40,857 nucleotides of DNA. It comes from a virus. Lineage: Duplodnaviria; Caudoviricetes. The DNA lies in the IMG/VR virus record IMGVR_UViG_3300017780_003951, positions 1 to 40,857 of that record; one strand, 5' to 3'. The position numbers and the translations under genes were made by a program. The notes below the pieces were generated by a model. The model was given only the letters and a program-made list of their open reading frames with translations, had not been told where the DNA came from and did not search any database. Shown here piece after piece: positions 2,603-17,956 of the stretch (position 1 is its first letter; every line of letters begins with the position of its first letter).

Positions 2603-3529
2603 TTAAAAAAGTGTGTTTTTAATTATATCCCCTTTACCGTTCCAAAATATAGACTCAAATACTTTCTTTTTATTATTAGTAGCTGATAAACTACTTCGGT
2701 GTGAAAACATTTCTATCTTTTCAAAAGGTGCATCGTACTCGCTTAAATAGGCTGGGTATTCTAAATCACTAAACCATTCATAAAAAGCATCGTGATTAAA
2801 ACCACCCTCTTTATATTCACCCGTTCCTTTGTATGGAATATCGCAATAAATTATCGGATTACTTCCTTGTATTAAAACTTTTTCGTAACTTGTGTTATTT
2901 GTCTGTAGGTTCTGTAGGTTCTGTAGGTTCTGTAGGTTCTGTAGGCGTGTTAAGTGTTCTACTAATTCTAAATTTTGAACATCGCATCTTTTTTCAGTTA
3001 TTTTTTTAACGTGGCTACAAAAAGCTAATCTTCGTTTTTGAATATCTTTTATTTTAAATATACCTTCCATATTTAAACCTAACTTAAACATTGAGGTTTC
3101 GTCTAAATTAACAATTAATTCGTGTGCAAGTCTTTTAAATTCTTCAATATCAGCACCATACAAATATGAATTTTGACTATTACCAAAACTCCAGCAACTC
3201 ATAACAAAACCAGAAAACCAATCCGCCTCGCTATTACTTTTATTTATTTGCTTTTTAAACTCTTCACGTGTTACCCATTCGTAAAATTTAGGTTCTAATT
3301 CTTTATTGTTTTTAATATACTCTACTAAACTATAAATATGTTTATTTAATTCGTTGTAGTGTACGTTAAAACGATAATCTCTTACTGCAGTAAAACTAAT
3401 TGAACCGCCACCACCAAATAAATCGTAAAAGTCTGTTGTTTTTTCGTGTCTGCTTGTAATTTTTTCTAATATTTGAGAAGCTAATTTTCTTTTACTTCCC
3501 ATATACGGTATTCCTAAATTTTGTTTCAT
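2603..3529 (-). CDS. DNA adenine methyltransferase (Dam/D12 class)
   Basis: PYMGSK, DLFGGGGS (SAM-binding motif I), YNELN, YCDIPY (DPPY-like motif IV). Confidence 0.85.
   Translation of the reverse strand: MKQNLGIPYMGSKRKLASQILEKITSRHEKTTDFYDLFGGGGSISFTAVRDYRFNVHYNELNKHIYSLVEYIKNNKELEPKFYEWVTREEFKKQINKSNSEADWFSGFVMSCWSFGNSQNSYLYGADIEEFKRLAHELIVNLDETSMFKLGLNMEGIFKIKDIQKRRLAFCSHVKKITEKRCDVQNLELVEHLTRLQNLQNLQNLQNLQTNNTSYEKVLIQGSNPIIYCDIPYKGTGEYKEGGFNHDAFYEWFSDLEYPAYLSEYDAPFEKIEMFSHRSSLSATNNKKKVFESIFWNGKGDIIKNTLF
2902..2945. repeat. 9-bp tandem repeat (TCTGTAGGT), 4 full copies plus 8 nt, inside the MTase, encoding LQN repeats
   Basis: Read directly. Confidence 0.95.
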
Positions 3530-11724: not shown

Positions 11725-12228
11725 ATGAAAAATTATGAAATTACAGAAGAACAGATTAAACAACTAGCAAAAGGAAACGCAAAAGTAAAAGAATGGTTTC
11801 CAGATGTTTTTGAAACAATAATAAAATCAGGCGAGTTTTGGTTTCATAGTACAGGATGTTTAGTATTGGTGTTTGGAGTAACCAAAGATAATGGAGGTAC
11901 TGTAAAATGCAAACATATTAATAATGAAGAACATTTTGCTTTTCACGGTATTGATTGTATGTATAGAAAAGCCACCGATTCAGAAGTATTAGAAGCTTTG
12001 AAAAATGAAGCTATTAAAAGAGGGTTTAAAGGTGGGGCTTTTTATATACATACTGGAGTAGGTATTATTAGACAAGTGTTCGGAGATAATTTTATTTATA
12101 ATTGTACAAAACAAGAACTAAGTATTAACGGATTTTGTATTTTAGAAAAAGGCAAATGGATTGCTGAAATAATTAAAACCTACACCAAAGAAGAAGCAGA
12201 GAAATTATTAAACGCTAAAATCATATAA
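11725..12228 (+). CDS. Hypothetical protein, 167 aa
   Basis: ORF track; C-terminal TKEEAEKLLNAKII. Confidence 0.8.
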   Translation: MKNYEITEEQIKQLAKGNAKVKEWFPDVFETIIKSGEFWFHSTGCLVLVFGVTKDNGGTVKCKHINNEEHFAFHGIDCMYRKATDSEVLEALKNEAIKRGFKGGAFYIHTGVGIIRQVFGDNFIYNCTKQELSINGFCILEKGKWIAEIIKTYTKEEAEKLLNAKII

Positions 12229-12229
12229 C

Positions 12230-12460
12230 ATGAAAGAATTAAAAGAACTACACGCGCAAATTAAAGACAAAAAAACCTTTAACAAAAACTTATCCGAAAA
12301 ATTATTTTTAAGTGAAGTAACAGTTGAAAACGCTTTTAAAACAAGTGGTAAATTTAAATCCAAACATTTGGAAGTTGTTAATCATTGGTTAAATGTAGAA
12401 CTACGTCTACAACAAAAAGCACTTGAAATGTGGGTAAAAGATTGGGAGATTGTTAATTAA
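12230..12460 (+). CDS. Hypothetical protein, 76 aa (possibly DNA-binding)
   Basis: ORF track; function speculative. Confidence 0.65.
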   Translation: MKELKELHAQIKDKKTFNKNLSEKLFLSEVTVENAFKTSGKFKSKHLEVVNHWLNVELRLQQKALEMWVKDWEIVN

Positions 12461-12475
12461 AACGAAAATGTTATT

Positions 12476-12583
12476 ATGAAAAGATTTTTTAAATGGGAAA
12501 GTAAACCCAACGGGAATTGTCCTGTACAGTCAAATGGGTGTTTTCTGTTTCTTTTGAAACCGAAATCAAAGTATATACGCTAA
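12476..12583 (+). CDS. 35-aa ORF ending at the first array core; possibly a remnant
   Basis: MKRFFKWESKPNGNCPVQ...KYIR; stop TAA lies within CTAAC 12580-12584. Confidence 0.4.
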   Translation: MKRFFKWESKPNGNCPVQSNGCFLFLLKPKSKYIR

Positions 12584-12708
12584 CGGCTCTCGGCTTTGCG
12601 AGGTTGCGTAGAATAAAAAATAACCATTACAAACACACAAATACTTTAAAATTATGAATAAAGTTTTAGAAAATCCCGAAAGCAGCAATGCGATAAAGCC
12701 GATGTTAG
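12580..12708. repeat. attC-like hairpin site 1 (129 bp)
   Basis: CTAAC-GGCTC-TCGGCTTT...TTGC / GCAA...AAAGCCGA-T-GTTAG. Confidence 0.8.
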
Positions 12709-12965
12709 GCGATGTGCCTTTCACTGATGTAGATGGCAAACTAATTTTTATTAATGATATAATTGAACAAACCAATTTCAATGGAGAGCAATATTTAGCA
12801 AGATACCAAGTAGTAGTTGATCCAGCAGATAATGAAGTTTGTCTTTTAATGCTTTATGGAAACGATAAAGCAATGAACCTTTTTAATAGCTATAAATATT
12901 CAGCTTTTGGAACTGTAATAAATGGCAAACTTCGTAAAGGTCGAGTTGTCGGGCATATCGCCTAA
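12654..12965 (+). CDS. Cassette 1 hypothetical protein (YopX-like motif DVDGKLIFINDII)
   Basis: Starts in loop of site 1; stop inside CTAAC of site 2. Confidence 0.75.
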   Translation: MNKVLENPESSNAIKPMLGDVPFTDVDGKLIFINDIIEQTNFNGEQYLARYQVVVDPADNEVCLLMLYGNDKAMNLFNSYKYSAFGTVINGKLRKGRVVGHIA

Positions 12966-13089
12966 CGTCAAAGCGTTGGCGATGTTGGGGATTAGAAAGT
13001 ACAAAAGCTCAAATAAAAACAAATGATAGTAGAAAGCACAAAAGCTCAAATTAAGCACGGAAGCCCCAATATTGCTAATGCATTGTTGG
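12962..13089. repeat. attC-like hairpin site 2 (128 bp)
   Basis: GCGTTGGCGATGTTGGGG 12973-12990 pairs with CCCCAATATTGCTAATGC 13064-13081 (4 G.T); right core GTTGG. Confidence 0.85.
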
Positions 13090-14174
13090 GTGCAGCTCCT
13101 GTCCACAAATTTCCTTATAACTGGAATTTAAAAGATGCAAACTTTACAAAAGATAAAGGCAAAGTATTTAGTTGTTTTGCTTGTGGTGGTGGTTCAACAA
13201 TGGGTTATAAATTGGCTGGATTTGATGTAATAGGACACAGTGATATTGATAAGAAAATGATTGAAGTTTATAAAATAAATCATAATCCTAAATATTCATT
13301 TTTAGAAAGCATTACAACTTTTGCTAAAAGAAAAGATTTGCCAAAAGAACTTTATGAACTTGATATTTTAGATGGTTCGCCACCTTGTAGCAGTTTTTCA
13401 ATGGCTGGAAATAGAGAAAAAGACTGGGGCAAAGAAAAAGTATTTAGAGAAGGTCAAGAATTACAAGTTTTAGACACATTATTCTTTGATTTTATTGATT
13501 TAGCAAAAGAATTACAACCGAAAGTAGTAGTAGCTGAAAACGTAAAAGGATTGCTATTAGGAGAAGCGAAAGAATACGTTATTAAGATTTACAAAGAGTT
13601 TGAAAAAGCTGGTTACTATTGCCAACACTTTTTGCTTGATGCTTCAAAAATGGGTGTGCCACAACGTAGAGAAAGAGTTTTCTTTATTGCATTAAGAAAA
13701 GATATAGCACAACCGTTTTTATATTATGCAGATATGTTTACAGAATTGCCAAAAATTGATATGCAATTTAACGAACCAACAATCACATTAAACGACATTA
13801 AAGACAATAGTGCTAATGATGAAAAATGCGAAATGACTGATGTTAAAAGAAACATCTGGAATAATAGAATTAATGGAGATAGTGATTTTAGCTGCACATT
13901 AGGGCGAATTGAAAACAGACCAAATTCAATGTTTAATAATAATTATTTATATGGTAACAAGCCACTAAATACTATTTCATCAAAAAAGAATGATGTGCTT
14001 TTTGATGAACCAAGACATTGTAATTTTAACGAAAACACATCCGGACAAACATATCCAAAAGATTATAACTTTTTAAATATGCCTTATTTGTATTTAATAG
14101 GAATGAGTGTGCCACCTGTAATGATGGCTCAAATTTCAACTAAAATATACGAACAATGGCTGTCGAAGTTGTAG
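13023..14174 (+). CDS. Cassette 2: DNA (cytosine-5)-methyltransferase
   Basis: FACGGG (I), GSPPC (IV), ENV (VI), QRRERVF (VIII), IGMSVPP (X). Confidence 0.93.
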   Translation: MIVESTKAQIKHGSPNIANALLGAAPVHKFPYNWNLKDANFTKDKGKVFSCFACGGGSTMGYKLAGFDVIGHSDIDKKMIEVYKINHNPKYSFLESITTFAKRKDLPKELYELDILDGSPPCSSFSMAGNREKDWGKEKVFREGQELQVLDTLFFDFIDLAKELQPKVVVAENVKGLLLGEAKEYVIKIYKEFEKAGYYCQHFLLDASKMGVPQRRERVFFIALRKDIAQPFLYYADMFTELPKIDMQFNEPTITLNDIKDNSANDEKCEMTDVKRNIWNNRINGDSDFSCTLGRIENRPNSMFNNNYLYGNKPLNTISSKKNDVLFDEPRHCNFNENTSGQTYPKDYNFLNMPYLYLIGMSVPPVMMAQISTKIYEQWLSKL

Positions 14175-14195
14175 ATGCGTCTTTTGGAATTGCAC

Positions 14196-14326
14196 CTAAC
14201 GTTGTATTATTGTCGTCAGGTGGCGACAAAATAAAAACTAATTTTTAAATTTAAGACAAATTATGAAAGCACAAAACAATATTTCAATTAAAGACCAAAC
14301 CGCCACTTGCGACAATAATGTGTTAG
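14196..14326. repeat. attC-like hairpin site 3 (131 bp)
   Basis: ATTATTGTCG-T-CAGGTGGCG 14206-14225 pairs with CGCCACTTG-CGACAATAAT 14301-14319; single bulged T. Confidence 0.85.
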
Positions 14327-14652
14327 TGGCTGGCATAATTTCATACGAAGGTCGTCAATGGTTAGCGGAAGAATATTCAGAAGAAATTGGAAACGGTGCT
14401 TGGATGGCAAGTCCAATTTATCATACCGATAATGGGCTAGAAGTTCGCCCTGCAGGTGGCAATTGGTGTTTTAAAAGTCGCGGAGCAGTTCCATCTATTT
14501 TAGAACCTAAAAAGCAAAAAGAAGTTTACGAAAGTTGGATTAAACATTTGCAAAAAACAATCAACTTTTTAAGAGGTAAATTTCCAGAAGTTGAATTGGA
14601 TTATAAAAATAAAATTTCGTTTTGGCAAAGTTTGGCAGATGCTTGCCACTAA
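14263..14652 (+). CDS. Cassette 3 hypothetical protein, 129 aa
   Basis: Starts in loop of site 3; stop inside next CTAAC. Confidence 0.75.
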   Translation: MKAQNNISIKDQTATCDNNVLVAGIISYEGRQWLAEEYSEEIGNGAWMASPIYHTDNGLEVRPAGGNWCFKSRGAVPSILEPKKQKEVYESWIKHLQKTINFLRGKFPEVELDYKNKISFWQSLADACH

Positions 14653-14777
14653 CGTTAAAGCATAACAGTAGTTTAGGGAAAGTAAGCCTAATCTATCGGA
14701 GTTAAAACCAAAGATTCCAAGTACAAAAATAATTATAAATCCAGCCTAATGCCTAAATTACTGTTATGCAGTGTTAG
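14649..14777. repeat. attC-like hairpin site 4 (129 bp)
   Basis: GCATAACAGTAGTTTAGG 14660-14677 pairs with CCTAAATTACTGTTATGC 14752-14769. Confidence 0.85.
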
Positions 14778-15114
14778 GGAATCGGTTACATATTTACAAG
14801 CTATGAAAATCACAGAAAAACAATACCAAAAAGCATTGCTTGTAATTAAGCAATACGAAACTCAACAAAAACCTAAAGATATTTTTGAATTATTAAGACA
14901 AGGTTATGATGCGGAAGTGATAAAATACATTATAGAAAAATGCGATTTTGAAATTGACGAAACGTTTTTTCATAGAGATATTGCTTACGGTCTTGAAGTA
15001 GTTATTGAAAGAAAAAAAGCAAACGAACCAATTGCGATTGGAGCTATTGAATTTTTAAAAGCAATAGAAAAACAAGATCGTTTAACTCATCAAGATTATC
15101 TTGATTTTGGCTGA
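14749..15114 (+). CDS. Cassette 4 hypothetical protein (internal MKITEKQY start also plausible)
   Basis: ORF track; start uncertain. Confidence 0.7.
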   Translation: MPKLLLCSVRESVTYLQAMKITEKQYQKALLVIKQYETQQKPKDIFELLRQGYDAEVIKYIIEKCDFEIDETFFHRDIAYGLEVVIERKKANEPIAIGAIEFLKAIEKQDRLTHQDYLDFG

Positions 15115-15131
15115 TTTTCTATAACTGTTCC

Positions 15132-15262
15132 CTAACGCCCCGCAGCTACAAGATGAACTGGATAAAACAAGCCGTGTCACTTCCGAGTTGCACAATCAAT
15201 ACTGAAACAAAACAATTAATAAATTAAAAACTAATACCCGTTTATATTGTAACTGCTGTTAG
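15132..15262. repeat. attC-like hairpin site 5 (131 bp)
   Basis: GCAGCTACAAGATGAACTGG 15142-15161 pairs imperfectly with CCCGTTTATATTGTAACTGC 15237-15256. Confidence 0.8.
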
Positions 15263-15290
15263 CAGACGTTGTGGGTATTTAAAACAAAAC

Positions 15291-15497
15291 GTGATTATGA
15301 AAAATTATTTAGCATTTTATGGAATGGTTTATTACCCATCAGGCGGAATGGATGACTTATTAGGGGATTTTGATACATTAGAGGAAGCTATCGAATCTAT
15401 TACAAAAAAAAATAATGAATCCGATGGAGGTAGCTGGAGTTACTGTTGGGCAAATGTTTATAGTTTACAAGATAGAATTGAAGTTTACACAACTTAA
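15291..15497 (+). CDS. Cassette 5 hypothetical protein (YYPSGGMDD motif)
   Basis: ORF track; entirely within cassette ends. Confidence 0.75.
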   Translation: MIMKNYLAFYGMVYYPSGGMDDLLGDFDTLEEAIESITKKNNESDGGSWSYCWANVYSLQDRIEVYTT

Positions 15498-15529
15498 TTT
15501 CTTCTCAAAACGATTAGTAACAATGTTTG

Positions 15530-15658
15530 CTAACGTTCGACGGCTATACGATGGTTGGGATAAGATAGCCGTAATTTTTCCGATTAACACAAATTATCCC
15601 GACACAAAACAGACTTTAAATTAAACAATTAACCCAACTATTGTATAACCGTTGTTAG
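15530..15658. repeat. attC-like hairpin site 6 (129 bp)
   Basis: ACGGCTATACGATGGTTGGG 15540-15559 pairs with CCCAACTATTGTATAACCGT 15633-15652. Confidence 0.85.
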
Positions 15659-15683
15659 CAGTAGTTATAATACTCAAATTATT

Positions 15684-15944
15684 ATGTACACAAAAGAACA
15701 ATTAAACAAATTAGGTTTTAAAGAAGTAAAAGACCAAGAAACAGGAATTATTGATTTTGTAAATAAAGTTACAAGCAATGTTCATTTAGTTTTAAGCCCA
15801 ATGTTAGAAGAATTATTTATTTGGATTTTAGAAGATGGTGGCGATGAAGATTCAGATGGAACAAAATTAATTATTGATACTTCTGATTTGGAGCAAGCAA
15901 TTGAATTATGTAAGATTATTGTCGGTGTTGACGATGGCTTCTAA
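15684..15944 (+). CDS. Cassette 6 acidic hypothetical protein, 86 aa
   Basis: ORF track; within cassette ends. Confidence 0.75.
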   Translation: MYTKEQLNKLGFKEVKDQETGIIDFVNKVTSNVHLVLSPMLEELFIWILEDGGDEDSDGTKLIIDTSDLEQAIELCKIIVGVDDGF

Positions 15945-15953
15945 TAATTACTG

Positions 15954-16140
15954 CTAACTCATTTATTGACGAATAAAAAGTAATACTTATTATACAAAAC
16001 CACGTACTATTAAATTTTCAGACAATACGCTTAAAAAAGAATATTGTCCGTTTTAGAATTAAATATAACTCAATATAATAAATAGAAATTATGAAAACAG
16101 AAAATACCGAAAACGAGGCATTGAACAAAAACGATGTTAG
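15954..16140. repeat. Atypical junction 7 (CTAACTC half-site; arms do not pair; 187 bp)
   Basis: CTAAC 15954 and GTTAG 16136 present but no matching arms seen. Confidence 0.6.
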
Positions 16141-16300
16141 CGGTTCGTTACTTTCGGATTTAAACTACTGGAAGCAAAGATGTTTATTAGCTGAAAAATG
16201 TTTAGAAGAAAGTCCTAATGACCCAGACATAACAAGTGAGCAAATTAAAGCTCATAATTCTTACCACAAGTTCATTAGTCACTACGGCAATGACCGCTAA
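16091..16300 (+). CDS. Cassette 7 hypothetical protein, 69 aa
   Basis: Reads through GTTAG core (NDVSGS); stop inside CTAAC. Confidence 0.75.
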   Translation: MKTENTENEALNKNDVSGSLLSDLNYWKQRCLLAEKCLEESPNDPDITSEQIKAHNSYHKFISHYGNDR

Positions 16301-16370
16301 CGTTCCCACGATAGGGGCTGTTTGCCTATGCGGTTAGTAGATTACGCCACTAGCTACAAACGTGTGCTAG
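16297..16370. repeat. Short, degenerate hairpin site 8 (74 bp; right core GCTAG)
   Basis: CTAAC-GTTCC-CACG ... CGTG-T-GCTAG; additional GTTAGTAG at 16333. Confidence 0.6.
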
Positions 16371-16418
16371 TAGCTGGACGGATATTAAAGATAAATTAAC
16401 TTATAAAAACTAAATAAA

Positions 16419-16598
16419 ATGGATAAGGAACTAAAAATTACAGATAGACAAATTGCACACCTAAGAGAAGAAATTAGCAGAGTGCAAAGACAAGTACAAT
16501 TAATCAAACAAGGCAAAACTCATTTAGGAGATAAAAATCGAATGGATATTGCTGTTGATTGTTGTAAAGAAATTGACCGTGTATTATGTGAATTGTAG
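16419..16598 (+). CDS. Cassette 8 hypothetical coiled-coil protein, 59 aa (MDKELKITDRQ...VLCEL)
   Basis: Hand-translated; fits between cassette ends 16366 and 16611. Confidence 0.7.
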   Translation: MDKELKITDRQIAHLREEISRVQRQVQLIKQGKTHLGDKNRMDIAVDCCKEIDRVLCEL

Positions 16599-16696
16599 TC
16601 TTGCTACTAACTCACAAATATACACAATACCATTTTCAACTATCTAATTTAGGTATTGCGTAAAAATAAATATTAACAATTAAATAAATAGAAATT

Positions 16697-16894
16697 ATGA
16701 AAACACACACAATTGACCAAGAAGCATTAAGAGAATGGCAACAAGAAGAAAAAGTAATTTTTGCAAGTAGCACAAAAGAAGACAAACAATTGCATTGTAC
16801 TTTAAGAGGCAGTTATGAGGTTTGGCATAAAAAAGAAATAGTTTTAGAAACTATGCAGGCAGGAAAAGCAGTTGAAAAATACAACTCAATATAA
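16697..16894 (+). CDS. Hypothetical protein, 65 aa (outside the array)
   Basis: ORF track; last plus-strand gene. Confidence 0.75.
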   Translation: MKTHTIDQEALREWQQEEKVIFASSTKEDKQLHCTLRGSYEVWHKKEIVLETMQAGKAVEKYNSI

Positions 16895-16896
16895 CA

Positions 16897-16930
16897 TAAA
16901 AAAACCCTAACATTACGCTAGGGTTTTTTT
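16897..16930. terminator. Bidirectional terminator between convergent blocks
   Basis: AAAAAAACCCTA-ACATTACGC-TAGGGTTTTTTT. Confidence 0.8.
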
Positions 16931-17316
16931 ATATAATTCACAATCATAACAATTACAAACATGATTATTAAAAGCCAAAATAGCTTTGTAGAAAGACTTT
17001 CTATTAGTTGCGTGTAGTCTTTTTCTTTTTCTTTAACTTCTTGCTTTAAATCGGTGTTTTTGGAAGTACTGTCTTTATAAATGATCCTTTCACTTGTATT
17101 GGTAAAAGTTGCCTTTGTATTATAATATTCTTTGCCGTTTATTAAAATTGGTTTTTCTAAATTAATAGGCTCTAAACTCCAGCCTTCTGAAAATTTAGTA
17201 GCATCTATATTTACAATTGAAGTGCTGTCTGTTTTTAATTCCGTTTCTGTATTGGTTTTTTTAACCGTTGCACACTCGATAAAAAATAAAGGGATTATTA
17301 AAATAAGTTTTTTCAT
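16918..17316 (-). CDS. Putative lipoprotein with C-terminal TM helix (unimolecular-spanin-like topology)
   Basis: MKKLILIIPLFFIE-C (atypical lipobox); C-terminal LFWLLIIMFVIVMIV; follows endolysin. Confidence 0.6.
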   Translation of the reverse strand: MKKLILIIPLFFIECATVKKTNTETELKTDSTSIVNIDATKFSEGWSLEPINLEKPILINGKEYYNTKATFTNTSERIIYKDSTSKNTDLKQEVKEKEKDYTQLIESLSTKLFWLLIIMFVIVMIVNYIKKP

Positions 17317-17385
17317 TGTTTTTTACCAAAGATAAGAAATAAGTTGTATATTTGATTTTCATAATTAGTTTTTTTTTAGTTAATT

Positions 17386-17419
17386 AAATCCGTAGTATTA
17401 TTTATTACGGATTTTTTTT
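17386..17419 (+). terminator. Hairpin with T-run
   Basis: AAATCCGTA...TACGGATTTTTTTT. Confidence 0.55.
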
Positions 17420-17478
17420 GTATATTAGCTATTATCTTTGTAACGCATATGAATAAATTGTTTGTTCCACGACAAACA

Positions 17479-17511
17479 AAAAACCCCTACTCAAACGAAT
17501 AGGGGTTTTTT
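17479..17511. terminator. Terminator after endolysin (bidirectional shape)
   Basis: AAAAACCCCTA-CTCAAACGAA-TAGGGGTTTTTT. Confidence 0.75.
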
Positions 17512-17512
17512 A

Positions 17513-17956
17513 TTATTCAACGTGTGCAAATATGGCTACACTTTTATTTCTTTTTCGCCTCATTACTTGACCACCATTCGAGTCGTTACCTACTGCAGTA
17601 TTTCCTTCAATTGTTTCAAATTCATTATCACTTAACCACTTTACGAAAATTCCCGTGTGGTCGTAACGTCCGTCTTTATTCCAGTCAAAAAAAACAATGT
17701 CACCAGCAATTGGTTTAGTTGTGATTTGGTTATTCTTTTTAAAGTACGCTACTGCTGTTTGACATCCTGCAAATCCTTTTGTAAATCCTATTTTTGGAAG
17801 CGGAAAGCCTGCGGTTGAATAAACCCAACTCACAAACATTCCGCACCATGCTACGCCGTCAAAACCAAACCATTTACCGTATTTTGTTTTATTTGAATTA
17901 ATTGGTTTTTCTACTTGTCCGATTTCTTTTTCTGCAATTCTTATAATTTCATTCAT
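17513..17956 (-). CDS. CHAP-domain endolysin
   Basis: AWCGMFVSW (Cys), GDIVFFDW, HTGI (His), TIEGN. Confidence 0.88.
   Translation of the reverse strand: MNEIIRIAEKEIGQVEKPINSNKTKYGKWFGFDGVAWCGMFVSWVYSTAGFPLPKIGFTKGFAGCQTAVAYFKKNNQITTKPIAGDIVFFDWNKDGRYDHTGIFVKWLSDNEFETIEGNTAVGNDSNGGQVMRRKRNKSVAIFAHVE

Follow-up and report, generated by a model that had tools for sequence, protein, structure and literature searches.

Here, we describe an array of eight gene cassettes in a 40,857-nucleotide (nt) stretch of viral DNA (IMG/VR record IMGVR_UViG_3300017780_003951; hereafter the window), which is the whole contig of a tailed phage of the siphophage type. We consider it probable that this is an integrase-less array whose genes lie antisense to attC-like hairpins, and that its cassettes are moved in trans by an IntI-related tyrosine recombinase of Bacteroidota. 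On sequence grounds, each unit is an upstream hairpin, a GTTAG core, a gene, and a closing CTAA.

The array spans positions 12580 to 16611 and is delimited by nine CTAAC sites (12580, 12962, 14196, 14649, 15132, 15530, 15954, 16297, and 16607) and eight cores (12704, 13085 [GTTGG], 14322, 14773, 15258, 15654, 16136, and 16366 [GCTAG]). The whole window contains 11 CTAAC..GTTAG pairs lying 50 to 260 nt apart; seven fall within the 4-kb array stretch, and five of these seven are 129 to 131 nt long. Junctions J1 to J6 are hairpins of 128 to 131 nt. In seven of the eight cassettes, the closing arm finds its best partner in its own opening core, the exception being cassette 4, where the own core is second best (11.5 versus 12.0). 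The first CTAAC has at best a weak and distant partner and the last forms no hairpin, in agreement with the initial annotation, which had the array start with a full hairpin lacking an upstream partner core and end bare. Junction 7 forms no hairpin either: it is a second bare attI-like half-site, followed by an orphan right arm. Open reading frames (ORFs) 1, 3, and 7 stop at the TAA of their closing CTAAC. The features are as follows:

12560 to 12583, plus strand: upstream flank ending in CTAA, with no partner core; a presumed remnant of the original target site
12580 to 12708, plus strand: hairpin J1, attC-like (plus = bottom strand), holding ATG 12654
12654 to 12965, plus strand: cassette 1 ORF, 103 amino acids, no family; its stop is the TAA of J2
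12962 to 13089, plus strand: hairpin J2, core GTTGG, holding ATG 13023
13023 to 14174, plus strand: cassette 2 ORF, C5 cytosine DNA methylase (PF00145) with a predicted 20-residue hairpin-encoded leader
14196 to 14326, plus strand: hairpin J3, holding ATG 14263
14263 to 14652, plus strand: cassette 3 ORF, 129 amino acids, no family; its stop is the TAA of J4
14649 to 14777, plus strand: hairpin J4, with ATG 14749 in the right arm in a weak context
14749 to 15114, plus strand: cassette 4 ORF, start at 14749 or 14803
15132 to 15262, plus strand: hairpin J5, no open loop ATG
15297 to 15497, plus strand: cassette 5 ORF, phrog_1411-like, start after the core
15530 to 15658, plus strand: hairpin J6, no open loop ATG
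15684 to 15944, plus strand: cassette 6 ORF, 86 amino acids, start after the core
15954 to 15976, minus strand: first attI-like bare half-site (left part of J7), top 1.2% of background
16091 to 16300, plus strand: cassette 7 ORF, 69 amino acids, through the orphan right arm and core 16136, left arm missing
16297 to 16370, plus strand: decayed junction J8, core GCTAG at 16366
16419 to 16598, plus strand: cassette 8 ORF, 59 amino acids, start after the core
16607 to 16629, minus strand: terminal attI-like bare half-site (J9), top 0.2% of background

By alignment, the plus strand of the window is the equivalent of the attC bottom strand, because the attC of veb1 is the reverse complement of J1 to J6 and has its crossover at G/TT (the slash marks the exchanged bond; available text of Aubert 2012, PMC3518468). 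Its core spacing is 123 nt and its arms align with those of the window. Host Bacteroidota sites likewise align with J1 to J6 as reverse complements, and at one host locus (L274) the same hairpin follows genes, reversed relative to the phage orientation. These alignments bear out the strand assignment made in the initial annotation. As in attCs, inverted AAC and GTT cores close a hairpin with compensatory conservation: in the stem common to the veb1 attC, the window, and the host sites, 16 of 26 pairs are changed on both sides (10 related sequences, with a structure set by the analyst). Sites reconstructed with their own arms fold better on the plus strand in 6/6 cases. G.T pairs outnumber A.C pairs by 611 to 156 in 208 sites, a count that is partly circular since the site detector favors G.T.

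The hairpin family is widespread. A 20-mer taken from the right arm is present in some 2,000 bacterial genome stretches, with Bacteroidota titles at 70 of 78 loci among the matches listed. Core spacings cluster at 120 to 129 nt, the range of 198 of 280 sites in a partly selected set that retains duplicates; smaller groups lie near 60, 85, and 185 nt. Across many loci, hairpin spacing classes near 60, 122, and 185 nt follow one another in steps of about 62 to 63 nt. The left arm departs from the canonical attC spacer by three to four extra bases in 197 of 215 sites, and we find no conserved extrahelical base, the commonest unpaired arm position being present in 11 of 208 sites. Rfam covariance models gave no relevant match to the hairpins. 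Flavo-1 RNA (RF01705) was rejected as an identity: its model does not match, and its instances differ in sequence.

Genes of phage cassettes are almost always antisense to the classical integron layout, as the initial annotation had proposed for the window. In 98 of 100 distinct phage cassettes the gene is on the bottom strand, and the same layout is found in the cultured phages tooticki6-1, 11b, and P12002L. Cassettes from bacterial assemblies comprise 19 of 34 in classical and 15 of 34 in bottom-strand orientation; 13 of these 15 sit in two phage-like loci (L137 and L142).

We find that genes mostly travel with their upstream hairpin. Among 80 viral loci carrying the methylase, four (L001, L002, L012, and L036) match the window from ~12962 to ~14200, that is, from the upstream hairpin to the closing CTAAC, and then stop; their neighbors differ on both sides of the cassette. 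Outer arms are complementary in 160 of 189 cassettes, and six families within these 160 are present in more than one context. Five of the six keep the upstream hairpin interior in new contexts (identity 0.88 to 1.00) and not the downstream interior (0.42 to 0.67; background mean 0.54). The single relative of cassette 3 (L374) also keeps its upstream hairpin. Part of the phage set was gathered via the hairpin pattern or the methylase query. These comparisons answer the question, raised with the original proposal, of which hairpin stays with its gene. The proposed mobile unit of hairpin plus gene is supported in its boundaries; the crossover, which had been placed at CTAA/C, is located by sequence only within the common AAC, and by analogy with IntI it would fall exactly at the AA/C bond.

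The same data bear on a classical polarity, in which each gene would move with its downstream hairpin, crossover would occur at the plus-strand G/TT, and loop ATGs would be there by chance. The two polarities would yield an identical circle and cannot be told apart by outer-arm pairing, and the homology of leader-swapped copies begins at the core, which favors the classical polarity. However, no homologous cassette in a new context keeps its downstream hairpin at high identity, and the array opens with a full hairpin and ends bare. Furthermore, placing the downstream hairpin in front of a gene gives an open frame in 16 of 62 cases, against 43 of 62 for the gene's own upstream hairpin. Classical polarity is thus already largely refuted, and we regard it as extremely improbable.

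The upstream hairpin often appears to supply the start codon and an N-terminal leader. All five ORFs and peptides first read from the array are present (12654, KPMLGDV; 13023, NALLGAA; 14263, NNVLVAG; 14749, CSVRES; and 16091, NDVSGS), and they read the core in two frames, the third being GT-TAG, a stop. Only four of the eight genes, however, convincingly start before the core. The starts at 12654, 13023, 14263, and 16091 lie in contexts that beat 95% of 122 internal ATGs and resemble those of other phage genes (scored with a matrix derived from 40 window genes). The context of ATG 14749 is poor, being matched by 27% of internal ATGs, and genes 5, 6, and 8 begin downstream of the core. More broadly, 61 of 86 long hairpins ahead of bottom-strand genes hold an ATG open through the core, whereas none of 27 short hairpins does, and in classical cassettes 1 of 19 long hairpins does. 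The idea that the hairpin provides the start would therefore hold for about 70% of long hairpins and for none of the short ones. The frames are divided 28/3/26. Leaders are kept in frame with their own genes, as had been predicted: 61 of 85 are open and in frame, compared with 31.9 ± 3.5 after shuffling hairpins among gene bodies (maximum 43).

The methylase of cassette 2 illustrates how a gene might come to depend on its hairpin. Downstream of the core, its first ATG is codon 60, which already lies within the Pfam domain that starts at residue 47. Because noncassette homologs start roughly at the core position, the cassette methylase seems to have been left without a start codon of its own, unless a TTG at the core serves. 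The start codon was probably co-opted from the A-rich loop, since the alignment of a host site with J2 extends across the loop, ACAAATG included. Some leaders have also been exchanged between genes.

Stem-loops that carry expression signals are known from other phages. PeSL (Promoter-early Stem-Loop) cassettes of T4-type phages hold a sigma-70 promoter within a repeated stem-loop. The hairpins of the window could similarly be mainly RNA-level modules for promoter activity or translation, with genes shuffled by homologous or microhomology recombination between the repeats. The stable strand is the mRNA strand, loops have start contexts, one hairpin or frame serves different gene bodies, and the phage encodes a YqaJ-like exonuclease and a single-stranded DNA-binding protein. 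We nevertheless consider this very unlikely: the hairpins are only about 54% identical to each other, the cassette-specific complementary outer arms and the attI-like ends would have no role, and in hosts the same hairpin is antisense to genes.

The bare ends of arrays resemble sites found beside recombinase genes. At 14 of 18 host recombinase loci, the recombinase gene is followed by a core that is itself preceded by an A/T-rich box. With a matrix built from this set, which was picked by eye, 18 of 22 phage array ends score higher than 95% of 6,902 background cores; in the window, J9 is in the top 0.2% and J7 in the top 1.2%. The ends of the window array, itself without an integrase, match sites beside both host and phage recombinases under this by-eye matrix. 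The start regions after the two attI-like sites (16071 to 16122 and 16677 to 16728) are 77% identical, which suggests a duplicated or merged platform. Cassette 8 (16357 to 16611) has a counterpart in tooticki6-1 (L288, L287) with the same core, outer arms, and start region, but the gene bodies fail to align, the frame being the same and the cargo different. The published “attC2” of P12002L (L286, 29160 to 29250) recombined with attI1; its position is that of the bare end of the P12002L array, and it might itself be attI-like.

Which enzyme moves the cassettes is suggested by linkage. In 36 genomes that bear the motif, no protein exceeds the TIGR02249 cut-off. Their best scorers belong to a family of 276 to 587 amino acids that skips model positions 180 to 238, and the linked enzymes score 154 to 209 (cut-off 265). 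The spacing from the patch to HxLRH is mostly 53 to 64 residues versus 100 in IntI: the linked recombinase lacks ~40 residues of the insertion (intI_Cterm) that is present in Vibrio IntI4. In a quick, midpoint-rooted tree of 56 of 58 rows, in which long branches were flagged and four IntI rows had been confirmed by model, the insert-less group (Shimodaira-Hasegawa-like approximate likelihood ratio test [SH-aLRT], 92) joins true IntI rows (SH-aLRT, 95), apart from Xer-like rows. A XerC/XerD identity was rejected, the enzymes being below the model cut-offs and grouping with IntI away from host Xer-like rows. Such recombinases are abundant, with 7,996 of 8,000 scored candidates passing 1e-40, other tyrosine recombinases included.

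Seven of 20 host recombinase loci have downstream hairpins in classical polarity, one has an upstream hairpin, and one a same-strand site only; the recombinase gene often points toward its array. Full host platforms, with an array, an attI-like site, and the recombinase, are found at two loci (L274 and L290). The latter (12001 to 17810), on a Chryseobacterium plasmid, is a full classical-polarity platform with a short unit in three copies, an IS110 element, and a group II intron. Among viral loci, L297 (three records) and L307 have a multisite array of bottom-strand genes that runs into the recombinase on one strand, an attI-like site can be read in L297, and single hairpin sites lie near the recombinase in L300, L310, and L313. 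From this linkage, we infer that the insert-less recombinase catalyzes cassette movement.

Cassettes of the same polarity might instead be moved by the ordinary IntI of co-occurring bacteria or by host XerC/D, with the insert-less recombinase a mere neighbor. IntI1 precisely recombines the veb1 attC, a member of the hairpin family, with attI1, but ~50-fold more poorly than the aadB attC (available text of Aubert 2012, PMC3518468). True IntI genes do exist in viral contigs, and many insert-less recombinase loci have no detected hairpins. Conversely, the absence of TIGR02249 matches over the cut-off from the 36 genomes and the match of phage array ends to the site beside the insert-less recombinase count against such a mover. 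The attC1 of P12002L, detected by HattCI, also has no verified IntI1 junction in the available text of Qi 2023 (PMC9892861). We consider an IntI or Xer mover unlikely. Canonical IntI genes were observed in the viral-contig records L328, L332, L334, and L340, the first with a 98-nt repeat array.

Several observations weigh against movement of hairpin-led units by the insert-less recombinase. No hairpin was detected at 11 of 20 host recombinase loci, several of which end at contig ends, and the same holds for the majority of the 80 viral loci with the enzyme. The host attI set relied on selection by eye, and of 35 open ends, 13 were excluded because they probably represent missed hairpins. Full in-array folds slightly favor the minus strand for J1, J4, and J7, the plus strand being better in four of six, and the detector's preference makes the 611:156 ratio of G.T to A.C partly circular. 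One cassette family (67% body identity) keeps neither hairpin (0.56 and 0.72), methylase copies L003, L004, and L056 lie behind a different upstream hairpin with the frame still open, and both relatives of cassette 7 (L375 and L376) have other upstream hairpins.

The array shares many characteristics with integrons and with clusters of attCs lacking integron-integrases (CALINs): AAC/GTT cores, cassette-specific outer arms, a folded asymmetric hairpin, and a putative attI-type end. The geometry of the right half is that of the aadA7 bottom strand, and, as in CALINs, there are six intact hairpins and no integrase anywhere on the contig. It differs in that phage genes are on the bottom strand and the hairpin precedes the gene, often supplying its start and leader; in that the left spacer is ~3 nt longer, with no conserved extrahelical base found; and in that some 40 residues of the IntI insertion are missing from the linked recombinase. 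The array thus appears to work like integron cassettes, yet we do not file it as an integron because two defining features are absent, the IntI insertion and the canonical spacer with its extrahelical bases.

The veb1 attC belongs to the same site family, with its 123-nt core spacing and aligned arms, but it is in the classical strand orientation, within class 1 integrons, and a poor IntI1 substrate (PMC3518468). In the available text, Aubert et al. draw one extrahelical base and do not link this attC to another recombinase (PMC3518468). Phage CALINs have been described as integrase-less arrays with methylases in virulent phages, and the available text mentions “divergent directions” only, without inverted polarity, a leader, or a dedicated recombinase (Qi 2023, PMC9892861). 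The attC1 of P12002L is a short member of the window hairpin family, and the strand cloned as its bottom strand is the one that encodes the genes flanking it; the layout is thus already contained, unrecognized, in a published phage CALIN (P12002L, Qi 2023). A role of recombination sites in translation also has a precedent: ORF-11 of attI1 and short ORFs in attCs aid translation of start-deficient cassettes. According to the available text (PMC8876359), this occurs by termination and reinitiation, whereas here the hairpin ORF would be fused in frame and travel with the gene. We found no literature description of this system, with subscription papers and bioRxiv supplements outside our coverage.

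We propose the following mechanism. The folded coding strand would be cut at AA/C and joined to the attI-like end, such that a new cassette would land at the downstream end of an early phage transcription unit. Translation would then be initiated in the A-rich loop of the ~122-nt hairpin, which would also encode a leader of 13 to 24 residues, and a gene captured without its own start could still be expressed via the hairpin start. Rare leader swaps might result from excision on the opposite strand or from recombination within the common core, with in-frame swaps surviving. DNA-modification enzymes make up 22 of 88 cassette cargo proteins, a proportion partly biased by the methylase query; such cargo likely counters host restriction.

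The genes identified in the phage include terminase, portal, capsid, tape measure, endolysin, helicase, and primase. No recombinase was found among the 52 window proteins scanned, and tblastn of five host recombinases against the window gave no match. DNA matches to the array region occur in 95 phage records, 77 of them Flavobacterium phages. The two best-matching sequencing runs are freshwater metagenomes, one of them perhaps the origin of the contig, and no RNA dataset among those listed contains window sequence. Contigs of four runs (X1 to X4) have no joint at any cassette boundary; a single joint within cassette 8, one side of which is short, is unreliable, and contig breaks close to J8 are a hint at most. 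A search for an empty site with the terminal flank gave 0 matches. No relative of the upstream flank gene was confirmed in the search. The three relatives of the downstream flank gene are all in other contexts, and thus none supplies an empty allele. The gene that follows the array (16697 to 16894) has a 92% identical homolog in another phage (L393, 2017 to 2374), where it is itself a hairpin-led cassette. Elsewhere in the window are a 360–amino acid protein with 18-nt (six-residue) tandem repeats and a YdcK beta-solenoid match (1358 to 2440) and a second DNA methyltransferase, of the D12 adenine class, outside the array (2603 to 3529).

The nearest relatives of the recombinase on non-Bacteroidota plasmids (48 to 49% identity) lie directly before tet(X3) and blaVEB-3, each of which begins behind an attI-like core. 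Short recombinase relatives (TnpF and one unnamed) were seen upstream of resistance genes at three loci (L289, 2967 to 5117; L292, 5052 to 7073; L291, 5142 to 6763), and downstream of tet(X3) lies a half hairpin of the window family. Re elements are further neighbors of blaVEB.

Integron surveys have found almost no integrons in Bacteroidetes and have treated insert-less recombinases as nonintegron (PMC9024848, PMC4889954). In the available texts, Neron 2022 (PMC9024848) lists only In0 elements and one Salinibacter integron for this phylum, and Cury 2016 (PMC4889954) dismisses insert-less recombinases near attCs. We lean somewhat toward a broader reading, in which Bacteroidota and their phages run a large, unrecognized sister system of integrons, without the IntI insertion or extrahelical bases. 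Phages would use it backward, with the hairpin as a portable start-and-leader module, and it would have supplied veb, and probably tet(X3), to Proteobacteria. If so, integron surveys have overlooked an entire phylum together with its phages, and the poor use of the veb1 attC by IntI1 and the TnpF gene ahead of tet(X3) would be explained. The IntI insertion would also be dispensable for hairpin-based cassette recombination, which bears on the origin of integrons from Xer-like enzymes. A recombination site that doubles as a protein start would be a novel design for a cassette and would hint at how gene bodies are turned into cassettes.

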